NCBI GenBank assembly: GCA_001799995.1
Contig: MGUK01000085.1
Span: 21 to 64,020, forward strand
DNA: 64,000 nt
Reading direction: 5' to 3'
Source of the DNA: Elusimicrobia bacterium GWF2_62_30
GTDB taxonomy: Bacteria > Elusimicrobiota > Elusimicrobia > Elusimicrobiales > UBA9959
Every line of letters begins with the position of its first letter. Positions within the stretch are counted from its first letter, which is position 1. The notes under the pieces were generated by a model. That model was given only the letters and a program-made list of their open reading frames with translations, was not told where the DNA came from and did no database searches. Below, piece by piece: positions 15,626 to 61,264 of the stretch. A program made the translations under genes and the position numbers.

Positions 15626-15628
15626 TAA

Positions 15629-36353: not shown

Positions 36354-36391
36354 CTTTTGTGACCAGGCAGGCAATTTTACGGAGGAACCCC

Positions 36392-37624: not shown

Positions 37625-37645
37625 GCCGCGCGGCAGGCGAGATGT

Positions 37646-37669
37646 AAAAGCCGGTCAGGGCTGGCTTTT
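37646..37669. terminator. Hairpin shared by convergent pepT and oleD ends (possible bidirectional terminator)
   Basis: aaaagccgg-tcaggg-ctggctttt forms a 9-bp stem including one G-T. A/T tracts form the stem ends. It overlaps the oleD stop codon. Confidence 0.35.
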
Positions 37670-38647
37670 AAACCACGCCGCCAGGCGTTCCATGCCTGTT
37701 TCTATGTTTACCAGGGGCGCGTAATCCAGGTCCCGCCGGGCGGCGGAGATGTTGAACCAGTGGGCGGTGGTCAGCTGCTGCACTACAAAGCGCGTAAGCG
37801 GGGGTTCGCTGCCGGTCCCGGCCAGCTTCCAGGCGGCTTCCAGCCCGGCCGCCGCGGCATAGGCCAGCGCGTACGGAATGGCCTTGGCGACGGGCGCGGC
37901 CCCGGCCGCATTCAATATCATGTTCACGATATCCCAGTTGGGGCGGGGGTCGCCCTGGGAAATGAAATACGCCCGGCCGGCGCAGGGCGCGCCGGGGGAA
38001 AGCCTTTCCGCGGCCAGCCAGTGGGCGTTAGCCGCGTCGTCTATATAGGTGGTATCGATCAGCTTGTTGAAGGCGCCGATGCGCCGCAGCCGGCCGGCTT
38101 TCCCGCGCGCCACGATAGTGGCTATCATGTGGTCGCGGCCCGGGCCCCAGATAAGGTGCGGCCTGAGCGCCGCCGTGGCCAGGGCCGGCGAATTGGCGGC
38201 GAGCACCAGCTTCTCCGCCTCGGCCTTGGTCTTGGCGTAATAAGAATCGAAGCTGGCGGGGTACGGCGCTCTTTCATCCCAGCCGTCCACGTCGCCGCCC
38301 GGGTAGATGACGCTGGGTGTGCTGGTGAAAACGAAACGGGCGACGCCGGCCGACTTCGCCGCCTCCAGCAGGTTTGCCGTGCCCAGGACGTTCGTCCTGT
38401 AAAAATCCCGGTAGCGGCCCCACATGCCGACCTTGGCCGCCGCGTGAAAAACGGTATCGCAGCCCCGGCAGGCTTCTACCGCCGAAGCCCGGTCGGCGAG
38501 GTCGCCGCGGACGCATTCCACGCCCAGCGCGGCCAGGCGGGGGTAGTCCCCGCGCGAGAAGCTGCGCACGGAAACGCCCTTCGACATGAGGAGCTGCGCG
38601 ATGGCGCCGCCGAGGAAGCCGCCGCCGCCCGTGACCAGGGCCTTCAT
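37655..38647 (-). CDS. oleD: OleD-type NAD(P)H-dependent 2-alkyl-3-ketoalkanoate reductase (3-beta-HSD/SDR family)
   Basis: MKALVTGGGGFLGGAI Rossmann start and the AAKVGMWG...NVLGT...FTSTPSV pattern. An ATGA overlap links it to oleC. It is the last gene of the oleABCD order. Confidence 0.8.
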   Translation of the reverse strand: MKALVTGGGGFLGGAIAQLLMSKGVSVRSFSRGDYPRLAALGVECVRGDLADRASAVEACRGCDTVFHAAAKVGMWGRYRDFYRTNVLGTANLLEAAKSAGVARFVFTSTPSVIYPGGDVDGWDERAPYPASFDSYYAKTKAEAEKLVLAANSPALATAALRPHLIWGPGRDHMIATIVARGKAGRLRRIGAFNKLIDTTYIDDAANAHWLAAERLSPGAPCAGRAYFISQGDPRPNWDIVNMILNAAGAAPVAKAIPYALAYAAAAGLEAAWKLAGTGSEPPLTRFVVQQLTTAHWFNISAARRDLDYAPLVNIETGMERLAAWFKSQP

Positions 38648-40266
38648 CGCCGCGCCCCTGCGGCTCCGATCTTTTCAGCGGCAAGGAGCGCGAGCTTTTC
38701 GCGCGAGATCTTGGCGTTGTGCCGTATGTCCACGGGGAACCCGGGATGGTACAGGATGGTGCGTATGCTCTTCGTGCGCTCGTCGGCGGCTCCAAGGGCC
38801 CTCAGTTCGGCGGTGAGGACTTCGTCCGGGGATACTCCCTTTTCCAGTTCCACGAACAGCACCGGGGTGAGGTTCCCCGCGGGCCCCGCGCCCGTCAGCG
38901 CGCTGCGGCGCACTTTAGGATGAGCGTTGAAAACGGCTTCGCAGGGGATGGTGAAAAGCGTCGCGTCCGCCGTAACTACCCGGTGGCTCTTGCGGCCGCA
39001 GAACCACAGCCGCCCGCCGGCGTCCCGCCAGCCGGTATCGCCCATGCGGTGATAGACTTCGCCCGCCGGGCCGTAGATCTTGGCCAGGGCCGTGCTTTCC
39101 GGCCTGCCGAAATATTCGCGCGAGACCACGGGGCCCTTTACGGTTATCTCCCCGATCTCGCCGTCCTTTACCAGCAGGTCGTCGGACCAGCGCTGCACCG
39201 GCTCGTCGGAGATCTTAATGATAAAGGTTTCCATTCCTTCCCAGGTGTGCCCGACGCAGATGCCCGGCTGCCCCGGGGTGAGCGCGGCCAGTTCGGCGCC
39301 GGAGATGCAGGAGACCGGCAGCGCCTCGGTGGCGCCGTAAGGGGTATAAACCTGGGTGTCAGGCGGCAGCATCGTCTTCATGCGCGCGATCACGGCGGGG
39401 GAGACCGGCGCGCCGCACGAAATGACGCGGCGCAGCGACGGCAGCTGCGTGCCTTTCTTTTCTCCGTAGCGGCTGAGGGTGTCCAGCAGGGCCGGGGAAC
39501 CGAACAACTGCACGGCGCCGTGTTCGTTGATCAGGCCTGAGAGCATGGCCGGGTCCACCGCCGCCGGCCTGGTAAAATCCATTTTGGGTATAACTATGGT
39601 AAGCCCCAGCGCTACGTCGAAAAGCGCGAAGAGGGGGAAAGTGGGCACTGAGTTAAAACCGGGCTCTATTTTAAAATGCTGCTTGAGCATCCCGGCTTGC
39701 GCGGCGAAGACGGAATGGGTGTACACCGCGCCCTTCGGGGAGCCGGTGCTGCCGGAAGTGAACAGTATCGCAGCCGTTTCGGGTGTGGTTTCCGCCGCCG
39801 GCACGGGGGTGCCTGCCCCCAGCCTGCGGATATCCTCCAGGGTGTACCCGCCCCAGAACCATCTTTTCCCTACGGTGACCAGGATCCGCAGCGATCCCCG
39901 GGCCCAGCGCAGGACCAGCCTGGCCGCGTGCGCCCTGGAGATACCGACAAAAGCTTCGGGGCGGGCTTCCTCGAGGCAGGCGCGCATGTTCCTGGCGCCT
40001 ATGCCCGGGTCGATGAGCACTATCACGGCGCCGGCGCGGAAAAGGGCGAAGGTAAGGGCCACGAACTCTATGGAAGGCGTCACCAGGAGGGCTACGCGCA
40101 TTCCCGGGGTTATGCCTGTTTTCGCGAGGCCGCCTGCCAGCAGGGAGATCTCCGCTTCCAGCCCTTCGAAGGAGATGGCGCGCGGGCCGTCTATTATGGC
40201 GGTGCGGCCGCCCAGGGCCGCCGCGCACAACGACATTAGCTCCGAGATATTGCGGATGTCCGGCAT
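38644..40266 (-). CDS. oleC: OleC-type olefin beta-lactone synthetase (AMP-dependent ligase superfamily)
   Basis: FTSGSTGSPKG AMP motif, plus the OleC-typical TFPLFALFDVALG and KMDFTRPAAVDP. Confidence 0.85.
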   Translation of the reverse strand: MPDIRNISELMSLCAAALGGRTAIIDGPRAISFEGLEAEISLLAGGLAKTGITPGMRVALLVTPSIEFVALTFALFRAGAVIVLIDPGIGARNMRACLEEARPEAFVGISRAHAARLVLRWARGSLRILVTVGKRWFWGGYTLEDIRRLGAGTPVPAAETTPETAAILFTSGSTGSPKGAVYTHSVFAAQAGMLKQHFKIEPGFNSVPTFPLFALFDVALGLTIVIPKMDFTRPAAVDPAMLSGLINEHGAVQLFGSPALLDTLSRYGEKKGTQLPSLRRVISCGAPVSPAVIARMKTMLPPDTQVYTPYGATEALPVSCISGAELAALTPGQPGICVGHTWEGMETFIIKISDEPVQRWSDDLLVKDGEIGEITVKGPVVSREYFGRPESTALAKIYGPAGEVYHRMGDTGWRDAGGRLWFCGRKSHRVVTADATLFTIPCEAVFNAHPKVRRSALTGAGPAGNLTPVLFVELEKGVSPDEVLTAELRALGAADERTKSIRTILYHPGFPVDIRHNAKISREKLALLAAEKIGAAGARR

Positions 40267-40273
40267 AGGAGGG

Positions 40274-41173
40274 TCAGGCCGCGCGCCCGATGAATTCCTT
40301 CACCAGCGGTATGACTTCGGCGGCGGCGTCCTCGAGGATATAATGGCCGCAGTCGGGGAAGACATGGGTTTCGGCCCGCGGGAACCTGCGCTTCCACTCC
40401 TCCAGGAAATGAACGTCGAAAACGAAATCCTTCAGGCCCCAGCAGATGAGCATGGGCAGCGTGGAAAGAGCGGAGAGCTTTTCCTGCGTTTCGAGCACCA
40501 GCGGATAGGCTTTGTCGCCGGGAGCCAGCGGGATATCCTCCACGAAACGCAGCGTAGCGATGCGGTTGCCCCAGCTGTTGTAGGGCGCGGTATAGGCGTC
40601 GCGCAGCCGTGGGCTCATGCGGGCGCGTTTGCAGCCTATCCAGGCCGCGCCGCGCGCGAAAGCGTTGAAGCCTCGGATCAGCCACGCGCCGAGCGGGGTG
40701 CGGCAGAGGCGCAGGGCGGGGGGGAAGGTTTTCCCGGACGGCAGGAAAAAGGCCCCGGTATTGAGAATAACCAGCTTTTCTATCCGTTCCGGGTGCCGCG
40801 CGGCGTAGGCGGTACCTATCATGCCGCCCCAGTCGTGCACCACCAGCGTGATCTTTTCTTTCAAGCCCAGGCCGTCCAGCAGGGCCTCGATATCCTCAAC
40901 CCGGCTTTCAAGTGTGTATTCGTAGCGGTCGTCGCCGGGCTTGTCGGAAAGGCCGCAGCCGATATGATCGGGGACAATGACGCGGCAGCCGCCCCTCAGC
41001 GCCAGGGCCAGGTCGCGGTAATAGAAGGACCAGGAAGGGTTGCCGTGCAGCATGACCACGGTCGGCCCCGAGCCTTCGTCGAGGTAATGCATTTTGAGCC
41101 CGCCCCTGAGGGTGGCGAACTTGCCGCTGAAGGGATAAAGTTCCGGAGTGACTCCGTCAGGAAGGTAGGTCAT
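40274..41173 (-). CDS. oleB: OleB-type beta-lactone decarboxylase (alpha/beta-hydrolase, haloalkane-dehalogenase-like)
   Basis: MHYLDEGSGPTVVMLHGNPSWSFYYRDL, PDHIGCGLSDKP and VVHDWGG. Confidence 0.85.
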   Translation of the reverse strand: MTYLPDGVTPELYPFSGKFATLRGGLKMHYLDEGSGPTVVMLHGNPSWSFYYRDLALALRGGCRVIVPDHIGCGLSDKPGDDRYEYTLESRVEDIEALLDGLGLKEKITLVVHDWGGMIGTAYAARHPERIEKLVILNTGAFFLPSGKTFPPALRLCRTPLGAWLIRGFNAFARGAAWIGCKRARMSPRLRDAYTAPYNSWGNRIATLRFVEDIPLAPGDKAYPLVLETQEKLSALSTLPMLICWGLKDFVFDVHFLEEWKRRFPRAETHVFPDCGHYILEDAAAEVIPLVKEFIGRAA

Positions 41174-41189
41174 AGTTGAAACCGCGTCA

Positions 41190-42206
41190 TTACCATTTAA
41201 GGCCCAGCATTATCGTGTTCAGGCCGCTGCCGATGCCGAGGAAAGCCACGTTGTCGCCGGGGAGCAGGAATTCCCGCTCGTCGGCTATCGCGGCGGAGGA
41301 GGGCAGCGCCACGGTGCCCATGTTCCCCAGGTATTCATACGTGGAGAAATCCCGGCCTTCCGGGATCCCGAGGGCTTCCAGGATGTGCTTCTTGTGGGTT
41401 CCGCCGACCTGGTGACAGATGACCTTATTGAAATCTCCGGCCTTCATCTCCAGTTCCCCGAGCAGGTCCGCCCAGGTGCGCTGGCCCAGCGCCACGCCGT
41501 GCTTGAGCACGGCCGTCGCATCGGTGGACATATGGTCGCGGTGCCAGATGCAGAGCTTGTGATGTTCGCTGGCCGCGCGGTACGCCCCGCCCAGCAGCTT
41601 GTGTTTCTTATGCGTCCCGAAAGAACCGTCCGTCAGCAGTACGGCCACCGCCCCGGACCCGCCGGTAAGCGTGGCTATGGACAGGCGGAAGTTTTCGAAG
41701 CTTTTATCTTTCGTCATCTCCTCTATCATGCTGTCGTTGATCTCGCGGGCGGATTCGCAGGAGACCACCAGCCCGGCCTTTATCTGGCCCAGCTCTATGC
41801 GGTTGGCGACGTCTATCATGCCGTTGAGCACGCCCAGGCAGGCGTTGGAAACGTCGAACACGGCGGTCTCGGGCTTTACGCCCAGAGAGGCGGCTACCGC
41901 CGTGGCGGTCGCCGGCTCGCTGTGTTCGCGGCAGACCCCGGTGTAGAGCAGAGCCCCGAGATCGGCGGCGGAAAGGCCGGCCTGTTCCAGGGCCTTGCGC
42001 GCGGCTCGGGCGGCGCCTTCCGACAGGGCGAAACCGGGGTCCCACCAACGCCGCTCGCGGATGCCGGTCAAAGCCTCGAGCTGGCCGGGGGCTATATGCA
42101 GCCCCGCCATCATGGGGGCGATGCGTTTCTCAAGTTCCGAAGAGGTGACTACATTCGGTCCCAGTTCATAGCCTATCGCGTCCACGAAAACCTTGCTGTA
42201 TTTCAT
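41190..42206 (-). CDS. oleA: OleA-type thiolase (FabH-like head-to-head Claisen condensing enzyme)
   Basis: Homology starts at MKYSKVFVDAIGYELG, with the ATG at 42206-42204. Active-site Cys in DVSNACLG. The ATG overlaps the TGA of the upstream gene (ATGA). The longer track ORF to 42371 is an Arg-rich out-of-frame overlap. Confidence 0.85.
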   Translation of the reverse strand: MKYSKVFVDAIGYELGPNVVTSSELEKRIAPMMAGLHIAPGQLEALTGIRERRWWDPGFALSEGAARAARKALEQAGLSAADLGALLYTGVCREHSEPATATAVAASLGVKPETAVFDVSNACLGVLNGMIDVANRIELGQIKAGLVVSCESAREINDSMIEEMTKDKSFENFRLSIATLTGGSGAVAVLLTDGSFGTHKKHKLLGGAYRAASEHHKLCIWHRDHMSTDATAVLKHGVALGQRTWADLLGELEMKAGDFNKVICHQVGGTHKKHILEALGIPEGRDFSTYEYLGNMGTVALPSSAAIADEREFLLPGDNVAFLGIGSGLNTIMLGLKW

Positions 42207-45200
42207 GTTGTTATCCGTATGCTGAAATCTTTCATCTGGTAGATGACGAGCCCGTCCACGATCAGGAACCCGTCGGCGCGCAGCAGCTTCTTCTCGTCGT
42301 CGGCGCCGGTTAGGTACGCCTCCACGGTGACCAGCTTGTTCTTCGGCACCACCTGGCCGCGGTAGATCCACTGGTGTTTCTCGTTGAGGGCCATAGCTTC
42401 GAAGCGGGCGTTTTCAGGCAGGTCCTTCCACCTGAGCGCGGCGGCCGCTTTCATCAGGTTGATGAAGGATTCCAGCCCGAGCGAACCGGGGCAGACCGGG
42501 TCCTGGTAAAAATGCGCCTTGAAGAACCACTCCGCCGGGTCAACTTTCTTGAGGCCTCTAAGGAAGCCTGCCTTCTTAGGCCCGCCGCCGGGGATATAGG
42601 TTTCCACGGAGTCCAGCATGATCAGCTTTTCGTCGGGAAGGGGGGGCTGGGCCGAAAGAGCGGCCGCCGTCCCGCGGGCAGCTTCTTCGGGGCCGGGGGT
42701 ATAGCGCGCCGCGCCGCGCACGCCCAGCTGCTCCGAGAGCGACTTCTTGGAGAAGAAGCCGAACTGGGTCACGCCTTTATATACGGTGCGGCCTTTGCAA
42801 AGCACTTCCATGTCGTAATCCTGGATGATCATGCCGCCGGACTGGGACACCTTGGTGATCTTCACCTTTGTGGTCAGTATCCCGGAGTCTGGAAAAACTT
42901 CCAGGTACTGCGTGGCCGTACCACCGAGATTCCGGAAGGACAGGTCAGTGGGGCTGGTCAGGGCGCTGCCCAGGTACGCGGCCAGCCAGCCGCAGGGCTG
43001 CAGCGCCACTTCCAGCAGCACGGCGAAAGGCATGGACTTCTGCGCGCCGGACTTAAAATACCATTCTTCCGGAGGCACGTCGTATTCGGCCTCGATGACC
43101 CCGCCCGCGGCAAGTTCCCACTGGCGGCAGTTCTCTATCTTAACAATGCGGTCCAGGAATTTATACGGCGCGCCCGGCAGCCTGGCTATCACGCGTTCCG
43201 AATCGAAAACCTTGTATTTTTCGCCGAAGGCTTCGGACGGCCTGCCTATGGCGAAGGCGGTGATGCTGGCGTCGTCGAAAACAGCTTTCCGGGGGCCGGC
43301 CGGCGCGGGGCTGGAGGCGCCCGCCCACAGGGCTTCTATCTCCTGCTTCCTGGCGCCGCTCATGCGGATGGACATGTTGTGGATATGGATGATGCGCTTG
43401 CCGTCGGCGTACATGAAGGCGTCGGCTATGGCGTAGGGCGTGCCGTCGGCCTGGTAGCCTATTTCTTTGACGATGATCTCGTACATCGCCTTTTTAGTGG
43501 AGGGCAGCACCTGGCCGCGGCATTCGAGCCGGCTGGTCACGCCCGGTACCGGCTCGTACCAGCAGGAGCCTTCTTCCGCCGTCCAGCCAAGGCGCAGCAG
43601 CAGGACCCTGAAAGTGTGCAGGCAGCATTCATACATCAGCGTGCCGGGCATCACGTGGTCGTCGGAGAAATGACAGACCAGGTGCCAGTCGTCGGGGTGG
43701 ATGTCCATCTCGCCCTGCACCAGGCCCAGGCCGTAGCGGCCGCCGCGCGGGGAAAGTTCAAGTATCCGGTCCACCAGGCGCATCTTCCCGGAAGGCAGGC
43801 CGACCGGCTTGGCGAGAGGCAGGTCCGCGAAAGCGGGGCCGAAAGCTTCGGCGTAGCGCCCGGCGCGCAGCGCTTCCAGCTGCGCGTCCGAATAAATTTC
43901 TTTTTCCGCCGCGAAAGGAGCGGGAGGCTGCCAGCCTTCCGGGGCCTTGCCCGGGGCTGAAGCCTGCTCTTCGGCCGTGAGTACCACGCCTTTGCCTTTG
44001 GAGAGTTCCTCTTGCGTGAAGAAGCCGGCGCAGCCTTTCTTCATACTGAGCAGCGGTTGGCCGTCGACGGTGCTCTCGTAGTTGAAGAAGAAAAGCCAGA
44101 TGTCGCCGTTCTGCGCGAAGCGCTCGATATTGATGTCGTAATGGATGGTCTGGCCCGGTTGCGGCAGGCCGCGGTGGAAGGTGACTTCCGCGTCGAGCAG
44201 GCGGTACATCGCCTTGCCCTTGGTCCTGCTGTCGATGCCGAGGTAGCCGCACAGGAACAGGTCCGCCTGTCCCGCTTCTACGGCGATACAGGTGGGGATG
44301 CGGCCGCAGTCCAGATACCAGGCGTCCTGGTGTATATCGTGTTCCGTTACCACGTTCCCGGAGGTCATGGAGGCTGGCTCGCCGCGCACGGAGAGGATGC
44401 GGTCCACCAGCATCAGCGGCTCGTCGGGCAGGCGCACGCGGGTGGGGTAGGTGTCGGCGGAGGCGAACATGGGGCCCAGCACCCTGGCGATGGAGCCTAC
44501 GGCGAATTCCAGGCATTGCTCGCGCGTCATGAACACGGCTGCCTGCCGCTGCGCTTCGCTCCGGGCCGGCAGCGGCGGCGCGGCGGGCGGAGCGGGAACG
44601 GCCCGGGCGGCCGGCGCCGTCCCGCCGGCTTTCAGCAGGGTTTCCTGGAAAGCGATGTTCTTTGCCTGCAGCAGCGAAAAATTATTGGAAAGGCGGAGGA
44701 AAACCTCGTGCGCCTTGGCGCCGGCCGAAGAAGCCGCTGAAAAATTAAGCAGGTAGCCCGGGCCGGGCTGTGCCGCGGAGGGCACGGGCGCCGCCGGGGC
44801 CGGAAGCGCGGGCGCGGGAGCCAGGCGCGGCGGCAGGGACTGCGCAGCCGCGGCCGCGGGGACGGCGGAGCGGCTGACGGCGGGCACGGGGACGCTCTTT
44901 GCTGCCGCCGCCGGCTCCGCGGAAGGCTCCCAGTTGTTCTTCACCGGGGGCGGCACTGAAAGGGGCGCGCGCACGATGTTCTTGACCGGCCCGTGGTCCT
45001 GGTGGGCCGAGGCGAGGGAGCCCTGCCCGTAAAGCGCGGCAAGGTCCGCCGGCGCCCGTTCGGTTATAAGCCGCGCGAGCAGGCGCAGCACCGTTCCCAC
45101 GGCGTTCTGATTCTTTACGCAGGCGGACCGGGCCAGGTGGGGCTGTACACCCAGGATCTTGTCTATCATCCGGGTACAGGAAGCTTGCGGGCCGAGCTCG

Positions 45201-49168: not shown

Positions 49169-49175
49169 TAAAACC

Positions 49176-52100
49176 TTATTTGAGGCTCAACTCCGTCCTC
49201 CGGAAAGCTTCGTTAAGCGACTTGTCCACCGTGGATTCGTAGCCTTCCAGCCTGGCGACGAGCACGCCGTTCGCGTCCACGAAATCTATATCGGCCCTGG
49301 CGCCGTGGTCCGACGAGGAGGTGACGCGCGCCACGATCCTGACGCCGGCGGCCGGGAAAGCCGCGGCATACTGGCGGTACGAGGCGGCGCTGTTGGGCAG
49401 GGAGCAGGCGCCGGAATTCTCGAACGTCCAGAGTATCATGCCCTGGAAGGCGGCGTCGAGCGCGGCGGGGTCGGCTAGCCAGCGGTCGCGCAGCGGCCGG
49501 CGCAGCCAGGAGGCGGGGGGCAGCGCGGCGGCGGCCTCGAGCACGATGCCCTTCTCTGAAACGCCCGCCACCGAGCGGATGAAGCGCATGTCCTCGCCGT
49601 GAAATAGTATCTCCCGGTAGGCCCGTTCCACCGGCCGGGGGTACGGCTTAAGCGCGAACTCGGGCGCGGCGGCGGCCGGCTTGGGCAGGGAGGGGGCGAG
49701 AAGGATCTCCGCCCCGGAGTGCAGCTCCCCGGCGGGCCCGCGCAGTTCCACGGGAACCGCGAAGAAGCCGTCTTTCTTTACGGCCTTGCCGGCGAGCGCG
49801 GAGATCCTGCGGGTTTCGCCGTTGAGGATGATGCCCTTGTAGATCTTCAGCCCGTTAAAGCCGTGGAACACCAGGCCGGGATTGCCGTGCAGGGCCGCGT
49901 GGGCCAGCCATTCCGTTATCACCGCGGTGGGAACGACGGACTTCCCGTTCATCACGTGCGAGCGCAGCACGGGGCAGTCCTCTACGGAAACCGCCAGTTC
50001 GAAAGCGGTGGAAGCCGCGCGCGGCTGCTGCGTCTCCAGGGGGGGCTGCGCCGGGGCGGTTCCGGCCGGGCCGCCGGCCGGCGCGCGTACGGGGCGGGCA
50101 ATAACGACCACCTCCACGGCGGCGCTGCCGGAGGCGAGTTCGTCTACGAGGAACCGTCCGCCAGCTTTGAGGTCTATTACGCCTACGCCCTCTTTCGCGA
50201 ACAGGGCTTTGAGCCCGTCGTTGACCATGCCGCCGTCCCAGGGGCCCCAGTTGAAGGAGACCACGCGGCAGCCGCCGAGGCGGCGGGCCAGCAGGCGGGC
50301 GGTCTTGTTGAGCGCCTCGTTGGCCATGGCGTAATCGCACTGCCCGGCGCGCCCGAAGCGGGCCGTGGACGAGGAATAAAGGGCCAGCACCTTGAGCTTG
50401 GAGGCATCCAGCGCTTCGAGGAGATTGCGAAGGCCGGACACTTTGGTGTCGAAAACCGAAGCGAACTGCTCGGGGGTTTTGTCCTGGATCAGTTTGTCGG
50501 CCAGCACGCCGGCGCCGTGCACAAGACCGCGCACCGTGCCCAGCTCCTTGTCTATCTTCGAGAGGACCTGCTCAAGGGCCTTGCGGTCGCGTATATCGGC
50601 GGAGTAATAGACCGCCCTGGAACCGGCCGCCTCGAAGCGGTTGAGCTGCGCGCGTATCTCCCTGGCCGCCAGGATGGCGCGGCACTGTTCGCCCGCGGCT
50701 TTCGGGGCCATACCGGGATTGCGGGAAATAAGGGCTTTTTTAATGTCGGCTTCCGTGCGGTGCTGGGAAAGCCAGGGCTCTTCGGCGGGAGGCAGCGGGC
50801 TGCGCCCGAGTATGGCCAGCGCCGGGGAACAGGCCGAAGCGAGAGCCGCTGCCGCTTCCGCGGTCACGCCGCGCGCCCCGCCGGTTATCAGGACCACGTC
50901 GCCCTTCGCGAGCGGGAGGTCCCCGCCTTTTACCTGCTCGGAGCGGCTGAGCAGCACTATCCTGCCGCCGGTTTCGGAAAGGCCCATCTCGACGGGGCCC
51001 TTGAAAAAGAATTCATCGGCTATGGCCTGCGCCACGGAGGCCGTGTGCTGCCAGTCGGAGGCCGCGTCCAGGGCCCGGCAGGAAACTTCCGGCCATTCAT
51101 GGGCCGCGGTCTTGGCCAGGCCGGCCAGCCCGCCGAAAACGGGGTCCTGCTCTGACTTGAGCCCGTCCACGCCGAAAGAACCGTCCAGGCGCGAAACGGT
51201 CATTAGGCAGGCCGCGGAGCTGCCGGCCGCGCCGCGGAGCGCCGGCCCCGCCAGCTGCGCCAGGCGGAACGCGTTCTTAAGGTAAGCCTCGGAATCGGCC
51301 GACCAGAAAGACTTCTTGCCGAGCTTTACGGCGGGGGCTAAGATCATCAGCCCGGACAGCCCTTCCTTCGGGGCCGGTTCTGCATGCGCGAAAGGTATTT
51401 TAAGCGCGCGGAAACCGCGCTCCTCCAGGTTCTTGACCACGGCGGAGGAGAGGGCGGAACCGTCGTCGGTGACCCAGACGGGAAGTTCCCTGCTCGGCGA
51501 TATCTTTTCCCGCGGGGAGGAAGTATCGAAATCCGCGGCCCGCAGGGTTTCGCGGGTTATTTCGTAGTTCCCGGTTTTAACCGGGGCTTCGGTCTTCGCT
51601 TCCTGCGAGGCGGAGGGAGTTCCCGCGGTGAGGAAAGCCGTTACCTGGCGCAGGGTGCGGATGGAGCCGAGCTGCTCCGGCGTGATGCGGGGCGCGGAGG
51701 GCAGCTTTTCCTGCAGTTCCGAAAGTATGGCCACGCGCTTGATCGAATCTATGCCGAGGTCGGACTCCATGTCCATGTCCTGGTTGAGCGACTCCGCCGG
51801 GTAGCCGGTCTGGGAGGAAACTATGGACAGCAGCACGGAACCCGCGTCCTGGCCGGCGGCCCCCGCGGCGGCCGGCCGGGCCGGGGCCTGCGGCATGCCG
51901 GCGGACAGGTAGGAAGTAACCTGGCGCAGGGTGCGGATGGAGCCGAGCTGCTCCGGCGTGATGCGGGGCGCGGAGGGCAGCTTTTCCTGCAGCTCTGAAA
52001 GTATAGCCACGCGCTTGATCGAGTCTATGCCGAGGTCGGACTCCATATCCATGTCCTGGTTGAGGGATTCGGCCGGGTAGCCGGTCTGGGAGGAAACTAT

Positions 52101-55100
52101 GGACAGCAGCACGGAACCCGCGTCCTGGCCGGCGGCCCCCGCGGCGGCCGGCTGGGCCGGGGCCTGCGGCATGCCGGCGGACAGGTAGGAAGTAACCTGG
52201 CGCAGCGTGCGGATGGAGCCGAGCTGCTCCGGCGTGATGCGGGGCGCGGAGGGCAGCTTCTCCTGCAGTTCCGAGAGTATGGCCACGCGCTTGATCGAGT
52301 CTATGCCGAGGTCGGACTCCATGTCCATATCCTGGTTGAGCGACTCCGCCGGGTAGCCGGTCTGGGAGGAAACGATGGACAGCAGCACGGAGCCTACGTC
52401 CACTCCCGGGGCCGCCGCGGGCTGCGGGACCGGCGCCGGCGCGGAGCGAACGGGCTGCGGGGCGAACGCGGGCTGGGCCTGGTAGACCGGCTGCGGCACC
52501 GCGGGGCGGTAAACGGGCGCCCCGGTGAACATCTGCTGCTGCTGGTCTATCAGCGCCTGGAAAGAACGCTGGGCGGCTTCCTGGCCTTCCAGGAACCGGG
52601 CGTGAAGGATGGCGGTCTGCTCCTGCAGTTTCTGGAGCGCGGCCATGCTTTCCTGGGTCACGCGCAAAGCGTCGGAGGCCAGGGCGTGCGCCGGAGCGAA
52701 CGGGACGGCGGCGGCCCGGGCAGGCGCCGCCTGCGCCTGCAGCGTAAGGGCTTTCTTCGGCGCCGAGGGCGGGCGCGGGGACCGGTAATTGGCCCCGGTA
52801 AGCTTTACCGCCAGCTTGGAGATCTTCCTTTCCAGCACGTCCTTAACGCCGGCTTCGCCGCCTTCCCAGGCCGGGAGGTCAAGGCTGAAACCGAGCGAAG
52901 CCAGCCGCGCAAGCGTACGCGCGGCGTCGGTTACCCCGGAGCGCCTGCCCGAACAGGAATCCAGCGCGAAAGCGGTATGCTCGCGGCCTGCAAGGATGGC
53001 GCCGGCAAGGCCGGTAAGCCGCGCCCCCGGTCCCACTTCCAGGAAGACGCGCAGGCCGGCGGCGTACATCTTCTCCACCATGGCCGTGAATTCTACGGGG
53101 GAGGCGAGCTGGGAGGCCAGGATGGCGCGCGCTTTGTCGGGCGCGCCGGGATAGATATCCGCAGTCTTGTTGGCGTAGACAGGGACTTTAGCCGCTGAGA
53201 ATTTAACCTTGTCGAGCGCCGCGGCGAACTCCTTCTGCGCGCCGGCCACCAGCGGGCTGTGGAAAGCGGCCGAGACCTGCAGCGGGACGTTCTTCATCGA
53301 GCGGTTACGGAAGCAGTCGGAAGCGCGCTGTATCTCGGCGGTACCGCCGGAGAGCACGAACTGCGCCGGTGAATTCTTGTTGGCGATGATGAGGTCCAGC
53401 TTCTCCTCCTTCATCACCTTCTCTATATCGGCGAGAGGGGCCTGCACCGCCAGCATGCTGCCGCGGTCGCCTTCGCCGCGGGCCATCAGTTCTCCGCGGG
53501 TGCCGGACAGGCTGAAGAGGGTTTTAACGTCGAAGACGCCCGCCGCGCAGAGGGCGGGCAGTTCGCCGTAGCTGTGCCCGGCGAAAGCTTCGGGAGCGAG
53601 GCCGAAGCCGGCCAGCACGCTGTAAGCGCCGAATTCGGCCGCGCCGAGGGCGGGCTGGGCTATGCGCGTATCCTTCAGGTCGTCGGCCTGTTTCTGCTTG
53701 TCGGCCGGAGTGAAGGCGGGGCGGGGATAGATGTAATCGGAGAGCGGCTTGCCGCCCGGGAATTCCCCGTCGGCGGCCGAGAGGACGTCCAGCGCGGACG
53801 GGAAGCGGCAGGCGAGCTCGCGCTGCATGCCCGCGTACTGCGCGCCCTGGCCGGGGAACAGCACGGCGAGCTTTTCCGGGGCGCCTGAGCCGAAGAATAC
53901 GCCTTCGGGGGTCGCCCAGGACTTGTCGGCGCCCTGCGCGCCCAGTTTGGCCAGGGCGGAATCTATCAGCCTGGCGTGGTCCTGGCCGTCGCGCTCGAGC
54001 ACGAAAGCAAGGCGCGCGGGGTCCGACGGCTTGAAAGCGGCGCGGGAGCGCATGGCCTTCACGCGGACCTCGTCCCAGGCGAGGCCTTTCCAAGAGGCTA
54101 ATTCTTTGCGGAGCGTTCCCGCGTCCGGCCCGGAAAGGGCCGCTACCTGCACGTCGCCGTCCCAGTCGGGGGAAGCCTTGGCGGAGGAATGCTCTTCGAG
54201 GACGGCGTGGAAATTGGAGCCGCCGAAGCCGAGGGCGCTTACGGCCGCGCGGCGCGGGTGGTCCTTCTTCAGCCACGGGCGCAGCTCGGTGTTCAGGTAA
54301 AATGGAGTGGTGCCGGCGGCCAACTGCTTTAAAGGGGTGGTGACCTTTATCGTGGGGGGCAGCGTCTTGTTGTACAGCGAAAGCGCGGCCTTGATCAGGC
54401 CGGCCGACCCGGCGGCGGCCTTGGTGTGGCCCAGCATGGACTTAACCGAGCCCAGCGCGCACCAGGCGCCTTCCTTCCCGGTTCCGCGGAACACTTCCGT
54501 AAGCGCGTCCACTTCCACGCCGTCGCCGACGACGGTGCCGGTACCGTGGGCTTCCACCAGCTCTATGGTGTCAGGGGAAACGCCGGTGGCGGAGTAGGCG
54601 TTGCGCAGCGCGCGCGTCTGGCCCTCGGCGCTGGGCGCGTAAACGGCTTTGCCTTTGCCGTCGGAAGAGGAACCCACGCCCTTGAGCACCGCGTAGATCC
54701 GGTCGCCGTCGCGCTCGGCGTCGGCCAGGCGCTTCATGGCCAGCATGCCCAAGCCCTCGCCCAGCATGGTGCCGTCGGCTGAGGCGTCGAAAGGTTTAAT
54801 GTCCCCGCTGGCGGAAAGCGCGGGGGTCTTGCTGAAGCACATGTACATGAAAATATCGTTGAAGCAGTCCACGCCGCCGGTGATGACCATCGAAGAGCGG
54901 CCGGCCGCCAGTTCGAGGGAGGCCATGTGCAGCGAGGCCAGGGAGCTGCCGCAGGCGGCGTCCACCACGCAGTTGGTGCCGCCGAGGTTGAAGCGGTTGG
55001 CTATGCGGCCGGCCACCACGTTGCCGAGCAGGCCGGGGAAGGAACTTTCCTGCCACGGGACATAGTCTTCCTGCATGCGGGAGATGATCTCTTCCGCGTC

Positions 55101-55583
55101 CTGGCCGGTTATGCCGAACTCGGCCAGGGCCTTGCGCCACTTCGGGTGCCCGAGGCGCGCCCCGAGCGGTATCACCAGCTCCAGCGCGCCGGTAACGCCC
55201 AGGATCACGCTGACGCGGCTGCGGTCGAACTCGCGGCCCTGCCCGTAGCCGGCGTCCTCCAGCGCCATCTTGGCGGCGAGGAGGCCCAGCAGCTGGGCGC
55301 TGTCGGTGGCCTCGAGCGCGTTGGGCGCCAGGCCGAATTCGGACGGGTCGAAATCCACGGGGAGGAGGAAGCCGCCCTTGTGCGCGTAGGTCATGTCCGG
55401 TTTCTTCGGGTTCTTGTCGAAATGGTCTTCGGGAAGCCAGTGTGACGCCGGGACTTCCGTTATGGCATCCACGCCGTTCTTGATGTTGGCCCAGAACCGG
55501 CGGCTGTTCTCCGCTTTGGGGAAAAGGCAGCCTATGCCGACGATGGCGATAGGGGTCAAGGCGGGATTTTCTTTGGCGTTCAT
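49176..55583 (-). CDS. pfaA: PfaA-like PUFA-synthase subunit: KS - MAT - ACP x3 - KR - DH(PKS-type)
   Basis: KS VVDAACGSS (Cys211, codon at 54951-54953) with HGTGT and GHTKAAAG. AT motif GHSYGE (aa ~669). Three LGIDSIK ACP sites (Ser ~1096, 1188, 1280). KR motif LITGGARGVT (aa ~1565). DH motif HVMNGKSVVP (aa ~1876). AAGAGGA RBS upstream. Confidence 0.9.
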   Translation of the reverse strand: MNAKENPALTPIAIVGIGCLFPKAENSRRFWANIKNGVDAITEVPASHWLPEDHFDKNPKKPDMTYAHKGGFLLPVDFDPSEFGLAPNALEATDSAQLLGLLAAKMALEDAGYGQGREFDRSRVSVILGVTGALELVIPLGARLGHPKWRKALAEFGITGQDAEEIISRMQEDYVPWQESSFPGLLGNVVAGRIANRFNLGGTNCVVDAACGSSLASLHMASLELAAGRSSMVITGGVDCFNDIFMYMCFSKTPALSASGDIKPFDASADGTMLGEGLGMLAMKRLADAERDGDRIYAVLKGVGSSSDGKGKAVYAPSAEGQTRALRNAYSATGVSPDTIELVEAHGTGTVVGDGVEVDALTEVFRGTGKEGAWCALGSVKSMLGHTKAAAGSAGLIKAALSLYNKTLPPTIKVTTPLKQLAAGTTPFYLNTELRPWLKKDHPRRAAVSALGFGGSNFHAVLEEHSSAKASPDWDGDVQVAALSGPDAGTLRKELASWKGLAWDEVRVKAMRSRAAFKPSDPARLAFVLERDGQDHARLIDSALAKLGAQGADKSWATPEGVFFGSGAPEKLAVLFPGQGAQYAGMQRELACRFPSALDVLSAADGEFPGGKPLSDYIYPRPAFTPADKQKQADDLKDTRIAQPALGAAEFGAYSVLAGFGLAPEAFAGHSYGELPALCAAGVFDVKTLFSLSGTRGELMARGEGDRGSMLAVQAPLADIEKVMKEEKLDLIIANKNSPAQFVLSGGTAEIQRASDCFRNRSMKNVPLQVSAAFHSPLVAGAQKEFAAALDKVKFSAAKVPVYANKTADIYPGAPDKARAILASQLASPVEFTAMVEKMYAAGLRVFLEVGPGARLTGLAGAILAGREHTAFALDSCSGRRSGVTDAARTLARLASLGFSLDLPAWEGGEAGVKDVLERKISKLAVKLTGANYRSPRPPSAPKKALTLQAQAAPARAAAVPFAPAHALASDALRVTQESMAALQKLQEQTAILHARFLEGQEAAQRSFQALIDQQQQMFTGAPVYRPAVPQPVYQAQPAFAPQPVRSAPAPVPQPAAAPGVDVGSVLLSIVSSQTGYPAESLNQDMDMESDLGIDSIKRVAILSELQEKLPSAPRITPEQLGSIRTLRQVTSYLSAGMPQAPAQPAAAGAAGQDAGSVLLSIVSSQTGYPAESLNQDMDMESDLGIDSIKRVAILSELQEKLPSAPRITPEQLGSIRTLRQVTSYLSAGMPQAPARPAAAGAAGQDAGSVLLSIVSSQTGYPAESLNQDMDMESDLGIDSIKRVAILSELQEKLPSAPRITPEQLGSIRTLRQVTAFLTAGTPSASQEAKTEAPVKTGNYEITRETLRAADFDTSSPREKISPSRELPVWVTDDGSALSSAVVKNLEERGFRALKIPFAHAEPAPKEGLSGLMILAPAVKLGKKSFWSADSEAYLKNAFRLAQLAGPALRGAAGSSAACLMTVSRLDGSFGVDGLKSEQDPVFGGLAGLAKTAAHEWPEVSCRALDAASDWQHTASVAQAIADEFFFKGPVEMGLSETGGRIVLLSRSEQVKGGDLPLAKGDVVLITGGARGVTAEAAAALASACSPALAILGRSPLPPAEEPWLSQHRTEADIKKALISRNPGMAPKAAGEQCRAILAAREIRAQLNRFEAAGSRAVYYSADIRDRKALEQVLSKIDKELGTVRGLVHGAGVLADKLIQDKTPEQFASVFDTKVSGLRNLLEALDASKLKVLALYSSSTARFGRAGQCDYAMANEALNKTARLLARRLGGCRVVSFNWGPWDGGMVNDGLKALFAKEGVGVIDLKAGGRFLVDELASGSAAVEVVVIARPVRAPAGGPAGTAPAQPPLETQQPRAASTAFELAVSVEDCPVLRSHVMNGKSVVPTAVITEWLAHAALHGNPGLVFHGFNGLKIYKGIILNGETRRISALAGKAVKKDGFFAVPVELRGPAGELHSGAEILLAPSLPKPAAAAPEFALKPYPRPVERAYREILFHGEDMRFIRSVAGVSEKGIVLEAAAALPPASWLRRPLRDRWLADPAALDAAFQGMILWTFENSGACSLPNSAASYRQYAAAFPAAGVRIVARVTSSSDHGARADIDFVDANGVLVARLEGYESTVDKSLNEAFRRTELSLK
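51594..52400 (-). repeat. Three tandem near-identical 276-nt ACP-encoding units
   Basis: acctggcgcag(g/c)gtgcggatggagccgagctgctccgg occurs at 51643, 51919 and 52195, a period of exactly 276 nt (92 aa). Confidence 0.95.
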
Positions 55584-55644
55584 GTTGTCCTCTTTTAAGA
55601 CGGCCGCCCGGCGGGCAGGGCCCGCGGTGCGGCGCAGCTGTCGG

Positions 55645-57219
55645 CTAGAATAACGGCGCTAACTGCTCCCTGGTCTGCGGCTCCTGCCGGGCGAGGGCGG
55701 CGTCTACCGCCACTCCCTGGCAGCGCAGCGCGTGCAGGCGGCTGAGCGCCGCCGCGCCGGCCAATAAATTGAAGGCGACCGTGACGGCGTCGCGGGACCG
55801 CGGGGCTTCCAGGAAGGTGCCCTTCGTCCACTCGTTGAAGGCGCCCATCGAGGGGCCGCACCACACCTGGTAATCCAGCTTGCGGGATTCGTCGCCGGCC
55901 AGCGGCCAGCGGGAGGACTGGCTGAGATACCAGCGGAAAACGAGGGCCATCTTGTGTTTCGGGTCGCGCTCGGCGCGCTCCGCCTGGGAAGGCTCCCTGC
56001 GCAGGAAGAATTCGCGCGTGCCGGCCCAGACCTCTTCGAAAGAGGACCTGAAGTAATCCTTCTCCAGGGACGCGCGCAGGTCGGCGGGCAGCTCGGCGAA
56101 GCTGCCGTGCGCGCGGTAGATCTCGAAAAGCTTGTTGGCGCGCATGGCGAACATCGTGCCGCGCTTGAGGACCTGCACCTTCACGCCCATCTCGAACATA
56201 TCGGCCGCGGCCGCCATCGCCACGTCGGACTGGCCGGCCCCCGCCAGCAGCGTCCGGACCAGGTCCGAAGTGCCGGACTCCACGCAGGCCTGGTTCACGG
56301 AACCGGTAACGATATAGGCCGCGCCCATCATGAAGGCCGCGGCCGCGGCTTCGGGCGTAGCTATGCCGCCGCCGGCGCCCACGCGCAGCCCGGAGGGATA
56401 GGCATACTTCTCCTGGGCCCTGTCCTTTACGGCTATGATGGTGGGCAGCAGGTTCACCAGGGGGCGGTTATCCGTGTGGCCGCCGGAATCGGCTTCGGCG
56501 GTGACGTCCTCCGCGACAGGTATCCGGGCCGCGAGTTCCGCCTGCTCCGGGGTCAGTTCGCCGCGCGAGACCAGCTCCCTGAGGAACTTGTCGGCGGGAG
56601 GGGAGAAGAAACGTTCGGCTACCTCGACGCGGGAAACCTTGCCGATAACGCGGTTCGGGGTTTCTATCTCCCCCGCGGAGTTCAGGCGTATGCCGTGGGT
56701 GCGGTAGCGTATCAGCGGCAGGCTCAGGTTTATATAGGCGGAGGCTTCTATCAGCCGGATGCCGCGGCGCAGGCAGAGGTCCACTACGGCGGCCTCCGGG
56801 GCCGGGTCAGAAGGAGTATGGATAAGGTTGATGCCGTAGTTGAACGCTTCGCCGGCCTGGAGGCGGTCTATGGCCTTCTCTATTTCTTCCACGGGCTGCC
56901 CGGCCGCCCCGTAGAAACCGAGCATGCCGGCGCGCCCCAGGGCTTCCGCCAGCTGGGTGGAACTTATCCCGTTGGCCATCGAGCCGCCGACATAGGCGTA
57001 CTTAAGGCCGTGGGCCCGGAGGAAAGCCGGGTCGCCCAGGCTGTAAGGGCGGCAGACCGGGACAAAGGCGTCGGCGGAGGCTATTCCGGGGGTGAAAACG
57101 GGGGCTCCGCCGCTGAACGACAGGGAATAGGGCCTGGAAATATCGCGCAGGCACGAGACCGTCTCAGGCGAATAAGGCAGAAAAAGGGGTAGTTCCGTTA
57201 ATTGAGCTTTAGAGGTCAA
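55645..57219 (-). CDS. pfaD: PfaD-like enoyl reductase (FMN-dependent, nitronate-monooxygenase fold)
   Basis: LKYAYVGGSMANGISSTQLAEALGRAGMLGFYGAAG and the remaining sequence are PfaD-family-like. TTG start at 57219, with GGAG 6 nt upstream. Confidence 0.85.
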   Translation of the reverse strand: MTSKAQLTELPLFLPYSPETVSCLRDISRPYSLSFSGGAPVFTPGIASADAFVPVCRPYSLGDPAFLRAHGLKYAYVGGSMANGISSTQLAEALGRAGMLGFYGAAGQPVEEIEKAIDRLQAGEAFNYGINLIHTPSDPAPEAAVVDLCLRRGIRLIEASAYINLSLPLIRYRTHGIRLNSAGEIETPNRVIGKVSRVEVAERFFSPPADKFLRELVSRGELTPEQAELAARIPVAEDVTAEADSGGHTDNRPLVNLLPTIIAVKDRAQEKYAYPSGLRVGAGGGIATPEAAAAAFMMGAAYIVTGSVNQACVESGTSDLVRTLLAGAGQSDVAMAAAADMFEMGVKVQVLKRGTMFAMRANKLFEIYRAHGSFAELPADLRASLEKDYFRSSFEEVWAGTREFFLRREPSQAERAERDPKHKMALVFRWYLSQSSRWPLAGDESRKLDYQVWCGPSMGAFNEWTKGTFLEAPRSRDAVTVAFNLLAGAAALSRLHALRCQGVAVDAALARQEPQTREQLAPLF

Positions 57220-57371
57220 GAGATTCTCCGTAGTATCAATAGCCGCAGCCGGTCATCAAATTATATATGTTTTCCTTATATGGGGTCTAGCGGAAAACCG
57301 GCAGCCGTTGATTCCAACTCTATAATTTGTTAGAAATGAAGGTAAGAGCTAACGGGCAAAGGGAGAGATCT

Positions 57372-57902
57372 ATGAGAAGAACCGGGATTTTGATGGTTTT
57401 CACGGCGGCGCTTTTTCTTGCGGGGTGCCCCTATAAAGCGGAACACAGGCTGGGAGCCCCGTCAGCCAAAACTTTCGACGAAGGCCTTATCGGCAACTGG
57501 GTATCCTGCGAGCCCGGCAAGGCGGACGCCTGCGCGCACCTCAGCGTCTTCCGGTTCAATGAAGGTGAATACTACGCGGAACTGTCCGGGATAGAGCGCG
57601 AGGGAGCTAACCGGAACATCAGGATAAACACCGACCGCTATAAAGCCTTTATGACGAACATCGGCGTGCCGGGGCTGCTGGACGTCCAGGAGCTGAGCGC
57701 CTCCACCGAACCCAGCAAAGCGCATTTCTACGTTAAAGCCGAACCGGCCGCGGAACACACCATCAAGCTGTCCTATATGTCCGACAATTTCACGAAGGCG
57801 CAGTTCTCCTCTCCCGAGGAGTTTGCGGCGCATCTCAAGGCGAACGACGCGAAGAAGGACTTCTACGAAACGCTGCCCCTGTTCGTGCGGGAGAGGAAAT
57901 AG
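57372..57902 (+). CDS. Hypothetical lipoprotein
   Basis: MRRTGILMVFTAALFLAGC lipobox. I chose the ATG at 57372 (GGGAGAG RBS) over the TTG at 57327 in the track. Confidence 0.6.
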   Translation: MRRTGILMVFTAALFLAGCPYKAEHRLGAPSAKTFDEGLIGNWVSCEPGKADACAHLSVFRFNEGEYYAELSGIEREGANRNIRINTDRYKAFMTNIGVPGLLDVQELSASTEPSKAHFYVKAEPAAEHTIKLSYMSDNFTKAQFSSPEEFAAHLKANDAKKDFYETLPLFVRERK

Positions 57903-61234: not shown

Positions 61235-61264
61235 TTAGCCGGCCAAGGGCAAAAATGCTATAAT
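61235..61264 (+). promoter_or_regulatory. Candidate promoter for the PFOR gene (extended -10)
   Basis: TTAGCC (61235-61240), an 18-nt spacer, then TGcTATAAT with TATAAT at 61259-61264. AAGGAGA RBS at 61303-61309. Confidence 0.45.

Follow-up and report, generated by a model that had tools for sequence, protein, structure and literature searches.

Gene content and layout of the locus

The locus described here lies in a 64,000-nucleotide stretch of DNA from Elusimicrobia bacterium GWF2_62_30 (the window), and consists of seven minus-strand genes, read from 57219 to 37655 in the order pfaD, pfaA, a fused pfaB/C (hereafter pfaC), oleA, oleB, oleC and oleD. The first three encode a PUFA synthase enoyl reductase (pfaD, 55645-57219, 524 aa, with a TTG start and GGAGAA ahead of it), a KS-MAT-ACP x3-KR-DH protein (pfaA, 49176-55583, 2135 aa) and a KS-CLF-AT-DH-DH protein (pfaC, 42203-49168, 2321 aa). 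The other four, which are contiguous and co-directional, encode a head-to-head Claisen-condensing thiolase (oleA, 41190-42206, 338 aa), an alpha/beta-hydrolase of the beta-lactone decarboxylase type (oleB, 40274-41173, 299 aa), a putative AMP-dependent beta-lactone synthetase (oleC, 38644-40266, 540 aa) and a putative NAD(P)H-dependent 2-alkyl-3-oxoalkanoate reductase (oleD, 37655-38647, 330 aa).

From pfaD to oleD, the gene junctions measure 61, 7, −4, 16, 7 and −4 nt (the last three being those within oleABCD), and the 4-nt overlaps at pfaC/oleA and oleC/oleD both have the form ATGA. The mechanically called oleA ORF begins at 42371, but the family match starts only at residue 56, and the ATG at 42206, which forms the ATGA with the pfaC stop codon, is taken as the oleA start. 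A preliminary description of this DNA had listed seven co-directional minus-strand genes, a junction range from a 4-nt overlap to a 61-nt gap, and an enzyme or domain assignment for each protein; all the ORFs were found again, the recomputed junctions match exactly, and profile searches (Pfam, NCBIfam/TIGR) agree with this list.

The Pfa synthase proteins

Both PfaD and PfaA score well above the cutoffs of their family models (TIGR02814, 624.9 bits against 449.25, and TIGR02813, 1534 bits against 1010, respectively). PfaD contains the Pfam domains NMO and FabD_helical_ins, and PfaA contains KS, Acyl_transf_1, three PP-binding, KR and PS-DH domains, with intact active sites (KS Cys211 in DAACGSS, the MAT motif GHSYG and three LGIDS sites on the ACPs). 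The three near-identical ACP domains are encoded by tandem 276-nt repeats on the minus strand at 51643-52391 (TRF: period 276, 2.7 copies, 95% matches), a repetition which is also visible in the protein.

In PfaC, Pfam identifies two KS domains, one AT and four FabA stretches. The KS retains its cysteine (Cys192) while the CLF has a threonine in its place, the AT motif GYSLG is found at 1131, and the DH histidines are at 1833 and 2219. The best solved relative of residues 6-853 is 6RIW (E = 1.8e-127; entry name ORF10), which we take to be the KS-CLF didomain of Moritella marina PfaC, and with 84 bits the AT region falls short of the cutoff (144) of the PfaB model TIGR02816. Of the features by which a Type I secondary-lipid cluster is recognised, the window has a 5' pfaD, the PfaA domain set, and a fused PfaB/C with a Cys-less CLF and two FabA-type DH domains, but no pfaE. 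A myxobacterial-type Pfa system was also considered and set aside, PfaC being without an AGPAT domain. This Pfa synthase is predicted to make a polyunsaturated acyl chain.

The Ole proteins

OleA reaches 470 bits on NF006720 (cutoff 285) and matches over its full length the structure family of 3ROW/4KU5 (E = 3e-53, with a modest HMMER score of 184 bits), which is presumably the OleA of Xanthomonas campestris. When aligned with the best solved structures, C123, E97, H265 and N295 provide the Cys/His/Asn triad and the glutamate (contributed by the partner subunit); all four are invariant in 14 relatives, and we assume that they correspond to C143, E117, H285 and N315 of the X. campestris enzyme. 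The active-site cysteine is at position 123 in the Shewanella protein as well.

OleB is a Pfam Abhydrolase_1 protein with its catalytic residues intact (Asp114 in HDWGG and His277 in GHY). No OleB-specific model was returned from NCBIfam, and the nearest families are haloalkane dehalogenases, with scores below their cutoffs; OleB enzymes are haloalkane-dehalogenase-like, and such sub-cutoff scores are expected of a relative that is not itself a dehalogenase. OleC (PF00501) is above the cutoff of NF006754, with 645 bits, and below that of NF045786, 'olefin beta-lactone synthetase' (607.5 bits over residues 24-531, cutoff 900). No solved relative of OleC was found at E <= 1e-30, and its identity as a beta-lactone synthetase is supported by gene context. 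OleD (Pfam 3Beta_HSD and Epimerase) has NF042422 as its best-scoring family by a wide margin, with 415 bits over residues 1-326, below the cutoff of 580. For both OleC and OleD, the Xanthomonas-type NCBIfam models outscore the Shewanella-type ones.

The preliminary description had left room for a beta-lactone or ketone end product. This is unlikely, since none of OleB, OleC and OleD is missing and the OleB Asp and His are retained; a beta-lactone natural-product (oleACD) cluster was rejected for the same presence of a catalytically equipped OleB.

Conservation of the block

Among the closest OleA relatives (from Elusimicrobia, Desulfuromonadales and Planctomycetota), pfaC immediately precedes oleA in 66 of the 74 informative loci, and in 57 of these the distance is at most 300 nt. 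Where the sequence reaches far enough downstream (59 relatives), oleA is followed by oleB, oleC and oleD in 51. Elusimicrobia MAGs account for about 28 of the 80 closest OleA loci (63-83% OleA identity), and the order pfaD, pfaA, pfaC holds in three close relatives (L082, L086 and L113). The same gene order recurs across at least three phyla, in dozens of genomes, an arrangement far beyond chance, and the synteny search suggested in the preliminary description does recover the layout across all three groups. None of the flanking genes of the window adjoins the block in any relative examined, which indicates that the seven genes form the conserved unit. Recent horizontal transfer was considered and rejected, as the tree groups the OleAs of Elusimicrobia in a clade of their own and the GC content of the block (66.4%, against 62.6% in the surroundings) is in modest excess.

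Transcription signals

The block is preceded by an AT-richer divergent intergenic region (57220-57371), which separates pfaD from a small upstream ORF; its GC content of 42.8%, against 66.4% for the block, bears out what had been noted earlier. The small ORF is on the plus strand and has a signal-peptide-like N-terminus. Within this region there is a sigma-70-like promoter candidate on the minus strand (TAGACC-N18-TATAAT, 57260-57289, 10/12 consensus match). In an alignment of the window with five relatives, TATAAT and the A-rich block preceding it are invariant, TAGACC is nearly so, and the sequences flanking the motif do not align; the TTG start of pfaD and its ribosome binding site are conserved in all six.

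At the other end, a hairpin (37627-37687) covers the stop codon of oleD together with the 30 nt that separate this gene from a convergent M20 peptidase gene (36359-37624, called pepT in the preliminary description), as had been proposed, and is a candidate bidirectional terminator. It has an inner stem, AAAAGCC...GGCUUUU (37645-37670), and an outer stem (37627-37687). The minus-strand fold of 37560-37690 has an energy of -55 kcal/mol (z = -3.35, with none of 200 shuffles as stable), and the plus-strand fold gives z = -1.9. Rfam returned no match in 37000-58000.

Inside the block, terminator-like sites are not above chance (15, against 18.3 +/- 3.6 in shuffles), so that the internal terminators which would have spoken against a single unit do not appear in excess. 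The 61-nt spacer between pfaD and pfaA holds a GC-rich hairpin, which was rejected as a terminator (z = -1.6, without a U-tail, in a spacer whose length is not conserved). Sigma-70-like matches total 5, against 2.2 +/- 1.5 in shuffles, an unconvincing number, and the three of these in and around the ACP-repeat region of pfaA (9/12) were likewise judged unconvincing as internal promoters.

It could be argued that pfaDAC and oleABCD are two adjacent operons, each with its own promoter and linked by position only. In Shewanella the pfa and ole loci are indeed separate, and in P. profundum the ole genes are an operon neighbouring pfa, whereas in the window all are in one block. Moreover, pfaC-oleA spacers range from about 180 nt to several kb in some relatives, and the spacers of about 180-200 nt seen in many Elusimicrobia suggest that an internal promoter may exist within the family. 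The 4-nt overlap in the window does not suggest one, however: here the start codon of oleA overlaps that of the pfaC stop, the consensus scan of the block gave no promoter-like match near this junction, and there is no excess of terminator-like sites, which makes the two-operon arrangement quite improbable for this genome. We therefore prefer the earlier reading of the block as a single transcription unit, which is supported at the sequence level by the short junctions, the conserved promoter-like motif, the terminal hairpin and the chance-level frequency of internal terminator-like sites, and in which the seven genes would be co-transcribed.

Comparison with known systems

The pfa-ole layout has already been described, and what we report is a further, so far unremarked copy of it in the genome of an uncultured groundwater bacterium of the Elusimicrobia. 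The 'Type I' secondary-lipid cluster, with its pfaBC fusion, was defined by Shulse & Allen 2011, who found ole genes 'often linked' to it (PMC3098273), and Yoshida et al. 2016 described a tandem pfaD-A-B-C-oleABCD-pfaE arrangement for Geobacter bemidjiensis, a producer of hentriacontanonaene, C31:9 (PMC4882568). The caveat of the preliminary description, that linked pfa-like and ole loci were already known, is borne out by these two studies. It had also been said that an identical, chemically characterised cluster would remove the novelty, and G. bemidjiensis with its C31:9 is essentially such a case (PMC4882568, PMC3098273). The identity of this hydrocarbon (C31H46 according to PMC3098273) rests on these two secondary sources, and the link between cluster and product in G. 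bemidjiensis is correlative, made without a gene knockout (PMC4882568).

The Type I clusters of Geobacter and the Desulfuromonadales have the same order on one strand (pfaD, pfaA, pfaB/C, oleA-D), the same domains, and a pfaC that abuts oleA. The same layout is seen in the cultured Geomonas edaphica, G. diazotrophica, Trichlorobacter thiogenes and Pelotalea chapellei (L025, L027, L050, L062; at L062 only pfaA-pfaC-oleA-oleB were within reach). The hosts on both sides are anaerobic or from the subsurface, but belong to different phyla, and the Geomonas/Geobacter-type proteins are 47-63% identical to those of the window (PfaA 47% and PfaC 51% to Geomonas).

The systems of Shewanella and Photobacterium are alike in that the Pfa synthase supplies the acyl chains of OleA and the OleBCD chemistry is the same. 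In Shewanella, OleA joins both pathways, and its in vivo substrate was concluded to be the acyl-ACP on the Pfa synthase (PMC6463001). These systems differ in having the order pfaA-D, separate PfaB and PfaC, a pfaE and an accessory thioesterase, pfaT, that contributes to the process (PMC6463001), while the window has a fused PfaB/C and neither pfaE nor pfaT. Their synthase also makes EPA or DHA. The OleABCD system of X. campestris has the same four enzyme families and the same catalytic residues in OleA, but is fed with ordinary fatty acyl substrates by FAS II and has no linked Pfa synthase.

Within the phylum, Shulse & Allen 2011 (PMC3098273) list Elusimicrobium minutum alone, with a Type R cluster that has a pfaA-like multi-ACP synthase. 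Type R is described as one KS-MAT-CLF-ACP(3-6)-KR gene accompanied by a PPTase, and the description includes neither pfaD nor pfaBC nor ole genes (PMC3098273); this different architecture led us to reject it for the window. Our literature search found no paper tying Elusimicrobia to pfa-ole clusters. What sets this cluster apart from the known ones is its phylum and the lack of a PPTase gene in the 64 kb; no new mechanism or new kind of system is revealed.

The missing phosphopantetheinyl transferase

No PPTase (pfaE) was found in the operon or in the whole 64-kb window (by tblastn, a custom PfaE HMM and Pfam searches of all its ORFs), nor any ACPS-family protein in the flanks of the Elusimicrobia relatives examined, whereas the same custom HMM places pfaE right after oleD in 25 Desulfuromonadales-type loci. 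The search covered the window and the flanks of the relatives' loci. The pathway had been called complete, which holds for the oleABCD genes, all of them present, and does not extend to a PPTase for the three ACP domains, absent from the 64 kb.

If the ACPs remained apo for want of a dedicated PPTase, the cluster would be silent or crippled and nothing would be made, which would fit the absence of such a gene where the 25 Desulfuromonadales-type loci have one. We regard this as very improbable, given that all catalytic residues are intact and that the block persists in about 28 Elusimicrobia genomes, with OleA identities of 63-83%, which implies purifying selection. Marine clusters are designated pfaEABCD in the literature, yet a synthase can also be served by a PPTase whose gene lies at another place in the genome, and this is how the ACPs of PfaA are presumably activated.

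Proposed pathway and product

From established knowledge of the Pfa and Ole families, the iterative Pfa synthase would build a methylene-interrupted polyunsaturated acyl chain from malonyl units on the three ACPs of PfaA, using the MAT, KS/CLF, KR, PS-DH and FabA-type DH domains and the PfaD enoyl reductase. OleA would then condense a pair of these chains head to head, which it probably receives straight from the Pfa ACPs. The resulting 2-alkyl-3-keto acid would be reduced by OleD, the OleD product closed to a beta-lactone by OleC, and the beta-lactone decarboxylated by OleB to give a cis-olefin. The product class foreseen in the preliminary description, a polyunsaturated hydrocarbon of very long chain length, holds up, as do the gene and domain assignments, and within this class the product would most likely be an olefin of the C31:9 type.

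The same pathway could nevertheless yield a different molecule, if the synthase released a chain other than 16:4 and the olefin consequently differed from C31:9 in length or double bonds. Chain length is not predictable from sequence alone, PfaA and PfaC have diverged to 47% and 51% identity with Geomonas, and the Elusimicrobia OleAs stand in a separate clade; with only 47-63% identity to the Geomonas/Geobacter-type proteins, chain length and unsaturation are not confidently transferable. On the other hand, such distant hosts as Shewanella and Geobacter both make C31:9, which suggests a conserved product, and we consider a different olefin possible, if on balance the less expected outcome.

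The synthase might also serve two purposes, making mainly an EPA/DHA-like PUFA for membrane phospholipids, with the Ole enzymes taking a side stream of a shorter intermediate. A single Pfa synthase does give EPA as well as the 31:9 hydrocarbon in Shewanella and Photobacterium (PMC6463001), and a dual role has been raised for pfa homologues in general (Shulse & Allen, PMC3098273). In the window, however, translational coupling ties the pfa and ole genes into a block that is conserved as a unit, PfaC lacks the myxobacterial-type AGPAT domain and there is no pfaT-type thioesterase; in addition, no EPA or DHA has been reported from Geobacter, and Yoshida et al. call its pfa/ole metabolites 'largely unknown' beyond C31:9 (PMC4882568). 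A dual purpose is, in our opinion, unlikely.

Altogether, we favour, with a probability of roughly 80%, the reading of the block as a single pfaD-pfaA-pfaBC-oleA-oleB-oleC-oleD operon which would make a polyunsaturated olefin through the combined Pfa and Ole enzymes. More speculatively, free-living groundwater Elusimicrobia may be an unrecognised environmental source of such hydrocarbons, polyunsaturated and very long in chain, in which a translationally coupled, pfaE-less operon may channel chains from the PfaA ACPs to OleA and the olefin may differ from C31:9.

Significance

These results extend a known lipid pathway to the uncultured phylum Elusimicrobia. They also correct the public annotation, since PfaA, PfaC and OleA-D of GWF2_62_30 carry generic names ('hypothetical protein', 'peptide synthase', '3-beta hydroxysteroid dehydrogenase' and similar) in the records. 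These six proteins of the window, and its SecD, match the GWF2_62_30 records at 100% identity. Since the seven genes stay together amid changing neighbours, the block is a compact candidate for making polyunsaturated hydrocarbons in a heterologous host. Finally, the block could be a marker for the hypothesis that polyenes protect anaerobes at oxic-anoxic interfaces (PMC4882568).

Gene content and domain organization

In the ORF list of the window, positions 57219 to 37655 are tiled by seven minus-strand ORFs, and profile searches place all seven in the Pfa plus Ole content that the preliminary description had assigned to them. In transcription order, these are pfaD (57219-55645; PfaD family TIGR02814, 625 bits, cutoff 449), pfaA (55583-49176; PfaA family TIGR02813, 1534 bits, cutoff 1010), pfaC (49168-42203), oleA (42206-41190; NF006720, 470 bits, cutoff 285), oleB (41173-40274; a haloalkane-dehalogenase-like alpha/beta hydrolase), oleC (40266-38644; top specific family NF045786, “olefin beta-lactone synthetase”, 607 bits) and oleD (38647-37655; top family NF042422, “2-alkyl-3-oxoalkanoate reductase”, 415 bits). 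Pfam resolves pfaA into KS, acyltransferase, three PP-binding, KR and PS-DH domains, while pfaC holds two KS-type domains, an acyltransferase and four FabA-type stretches. For oleA, the mechanical ORF start is at 42371, and the first residue covered by the family match is 56; at 42206 there is an ATG that shares the sequence ATGA with the stop codon of pfaC. With the start set at this ATG, the recomputed gene junctions are 61, 7, −4, 16, 7 and −4 nt, in agreement with the range originally stated; genes, domains and junctions all match the earlier observation.

The three ACP domains of pfaA are encoded by 276-nt tandem repeats (51643-52391) that are 95% identical. A 2043-aa PfaA from a second assembly, a member of the same 90% cluster, is shorter by exactly one 92-aa ACP unit; therefore, collapse of the repeats during short-read assembly may have influenced the count of three, or this number may differ within the population.

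Catalytic residues and structural matches

The active-site cysteine is present in the KS of PfaA (Cys211, in DAAC211GSS) and in the first KS of PfaC (Cys192), and the second KS-like domain of PfaC has a Thr at this position, as expected of a chain-length factor. Over its first 850 residues, PfaC matches PDB entry 6RIW (ORF10) with E = 1.8e-127, a structure which we take to be the Moritella marina PfaC KS-CLF didomain. The MAT motif is GHSYG, that of the PfaC acyltransferase is GYSLG, and LGIDS occurs in each of the three ACPs. Two FabA/FabZ-type catalytic histidines, H1833 and H2219, also occur in PfaC, and a pseudo-domain precedes each of them. The full length of OleA aligns with the 3ROW/4KU5 structure group (presumably Xanthomonas campestris OleA), and the protein keeps C123, E97, H265 and N295, which are invariant across 14 relatives and which we assume to correspond to C143, E117, H285 and N315 of the tagged crystal construct. 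OleB retains Asp114 and His277.

Conservation of the seven-gene block

The nearest OleA relatives are from Elusimicrobia MAGs (63-83% identity), followed by Geomonas, Geobacter and other Desulfuromonadales (59-63%), and then by Planctomycetota. The C-terminus of pfaC lies directly upstream of oleA, on the same strand, in 66 of the 74 OleA-centred loci whose upstream sequence reaches far enough (within 300 nt in 57 of them), and oleB, oleC and oleD lie downstream in 51 of the 59 that extend far enough on that side. In the pfaD-centred loci, close relatives have the order pfaD, pfaA, pfaC. We take the seven-gene block to be the conserved unit, because the window's flanking genes adjoin it in no relative, among both OleA- and pfaD-centred loci. 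By neighbour-joining, the OleAs of Elusimicrobia fall in a clade separate from those of Desulfuromonadales and Planctomycetota, and the block is not obviously a recent transfer.

Several variants were seen among the relatives' loci (L-numbers). One (L112, Ga0070734_10000070, 26-11428) has the order pfaA, pfaC, oleA and then pfaD, instead of pfaD first. Several Geobacter-type genomes keep pfaC-oleA-oleB together but have the ole block split or interrupted beyond oleB; L043, L046, L059 and L062 have no oleC/oleD within 10 kb, and in L039, L058, L068 and L069 an insert of 1.5-4.7 kb separates oleB from oleC. The pfaC/oleA junction, a 4-nt overlap in the window (42203-42206), is a gap of ~180-200 nt in many Elusimicrobia relatives (L002, L004, L005, L013-L016, L019; near 9800-10001) and of 1.5-6 kb in L021, L022 and L029; the tightness of this coupling differs within the phylum.

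Transcription signals

The spacer upstream of pfaD (57220-57371) has 42.8% GC, versus 66.4% across the block, and contains TAGACC-18-TATAAT (57289-57260). When the 290 nt 5′ of pfaD were aligned for the window and five relatives (PfaD identity 74-79%), TATAAT, the A-rich block before it, the ribosome-binding site GGAGAA and the TTG start were conserved and the −35-like TAGACC nearly so, with unalignable flanks. Terminator-like sites are not enriched in the block (15 versus 18.3 ± 3.6 in shuffled sequence), and a 3′-end hairpin (minus-strand fold, z = −3.35) takes in the stop codon of oleD together with the 30 nt that separate this gene from the convergent M20 peptidase gene. Given the promoter-like motif, the lack of terminator enrichment and this hairpin, co-transcription as one operon is a well-supported prediction. 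An Rfam search of the operon region gave no match. The pfaD/pfaA spacer (55584-55644; 18 to 121 nt in relatives) contains a GC-rich hairpin without U-tail, which is non-significant (z = −1.6).

Genomic surroundings

PfaA, PfaC, OleA-D and, on the far side of the window, SecD are 100% identical to the Elusimicrobia bacterium GWF2_62_30 MAG records, in which names are generic (for instance hypothetical protein, 3-oxoacyl-ACP synthase III, alpha/beta hydrolase, peptide synthase, 3-beta hydroxysteroid dehydrogenase); a groundwater-metagenome contig also carries an identical OleA. No mobile-element gene lies near the cluster. Housekeeping genes occupy 2216-16384 (Kdo transferase, secF-secD-yajC, tgt, queA, a SpoIID-like gene, ruvB-ruvA-ruvC and a YebC-family regulator). 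The 1172-aa product of a plus-strand gene (17969-21487) combines a fungalysin/thermolysin propeptide motif with a PepSY domain and, at its C-terminus, a FlgD Ig-like domain; the neighbours of this gene are a HEAT-repeat protein gene and ORFs without family match. Immediately upstream of the operon, the ORFs at 57327-57902 and 57998-59188 (plus strand) and 61264-63432 (minus strand) match no Pfam family and stand beside the cluster in no relative; the last (722 aa) may not correspond to a true gene in this form, because its coding score is poor (15, versus >100 in neighbours).

Relation to known systems

Shulse and Allen (2011, PMC3098273) defined 20 types of pfa-like cluster, of which Type I, with a pfaBC fusion, was found in Geobacter, Desulfuromonas, Pelobacter and Gemmata; they proposed that Type I supplies olefin precursors, since the C31H46 of G. 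bemidjiensis is the same as that of Shewanella. The sole Elusimicrobia entry in that survey is an unrelated Type R cluster, from Elusimicrobium minutum (PMC3098273), and our literature search found no paper tying Elusimicrobia to a pfa-ole cluster. For Shewanella, Allemann et al. (2019, PMC6463001) showed that the two pathways are linked by OleA; in their conclusion, this enzyme acts in vivo on acyl-ACP carried by the Pfa synthase. Such a substrate would fit both the absence of a pfaT-type hot-dog thioesterase from the window and the pfaC/oleA coupling seen there.

Whereas 25 Desulfuromonadales-type loci have the Sfp-type PPTase gene pfaE immediately after oleD (e.g. L025, 14570-15262; also L027, L041, L061 and L078), with the Geomonas copy matching PF01648 and PF22624, no PPTase gene follows oleD in the window or in any Elusimicrobia or Planctomycetota locus fetched. 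The ACPS family also had no match among the ORFs of the whole 64-kb window, and we infer that the ACP-activating enzyme is encoded elsewhere in the genome.

The reading of the block as a pfa-ole operon for a polyunsaturated hydrocarbon with a very long chain is supported, the most likely product being a C31:9-type polyene, although this is predicted and sequence cannot fix the product. The preliminary description rightly cautioned that the class is already known; by its own measure, most of the novelty is gone because the published Geobacter case (Yoshida et al. 2016, PMC4882568) has the same architecture with a chemically identified hydrocarbon. What is left as new is the lineage, the version without pfaE and the annotation gap.
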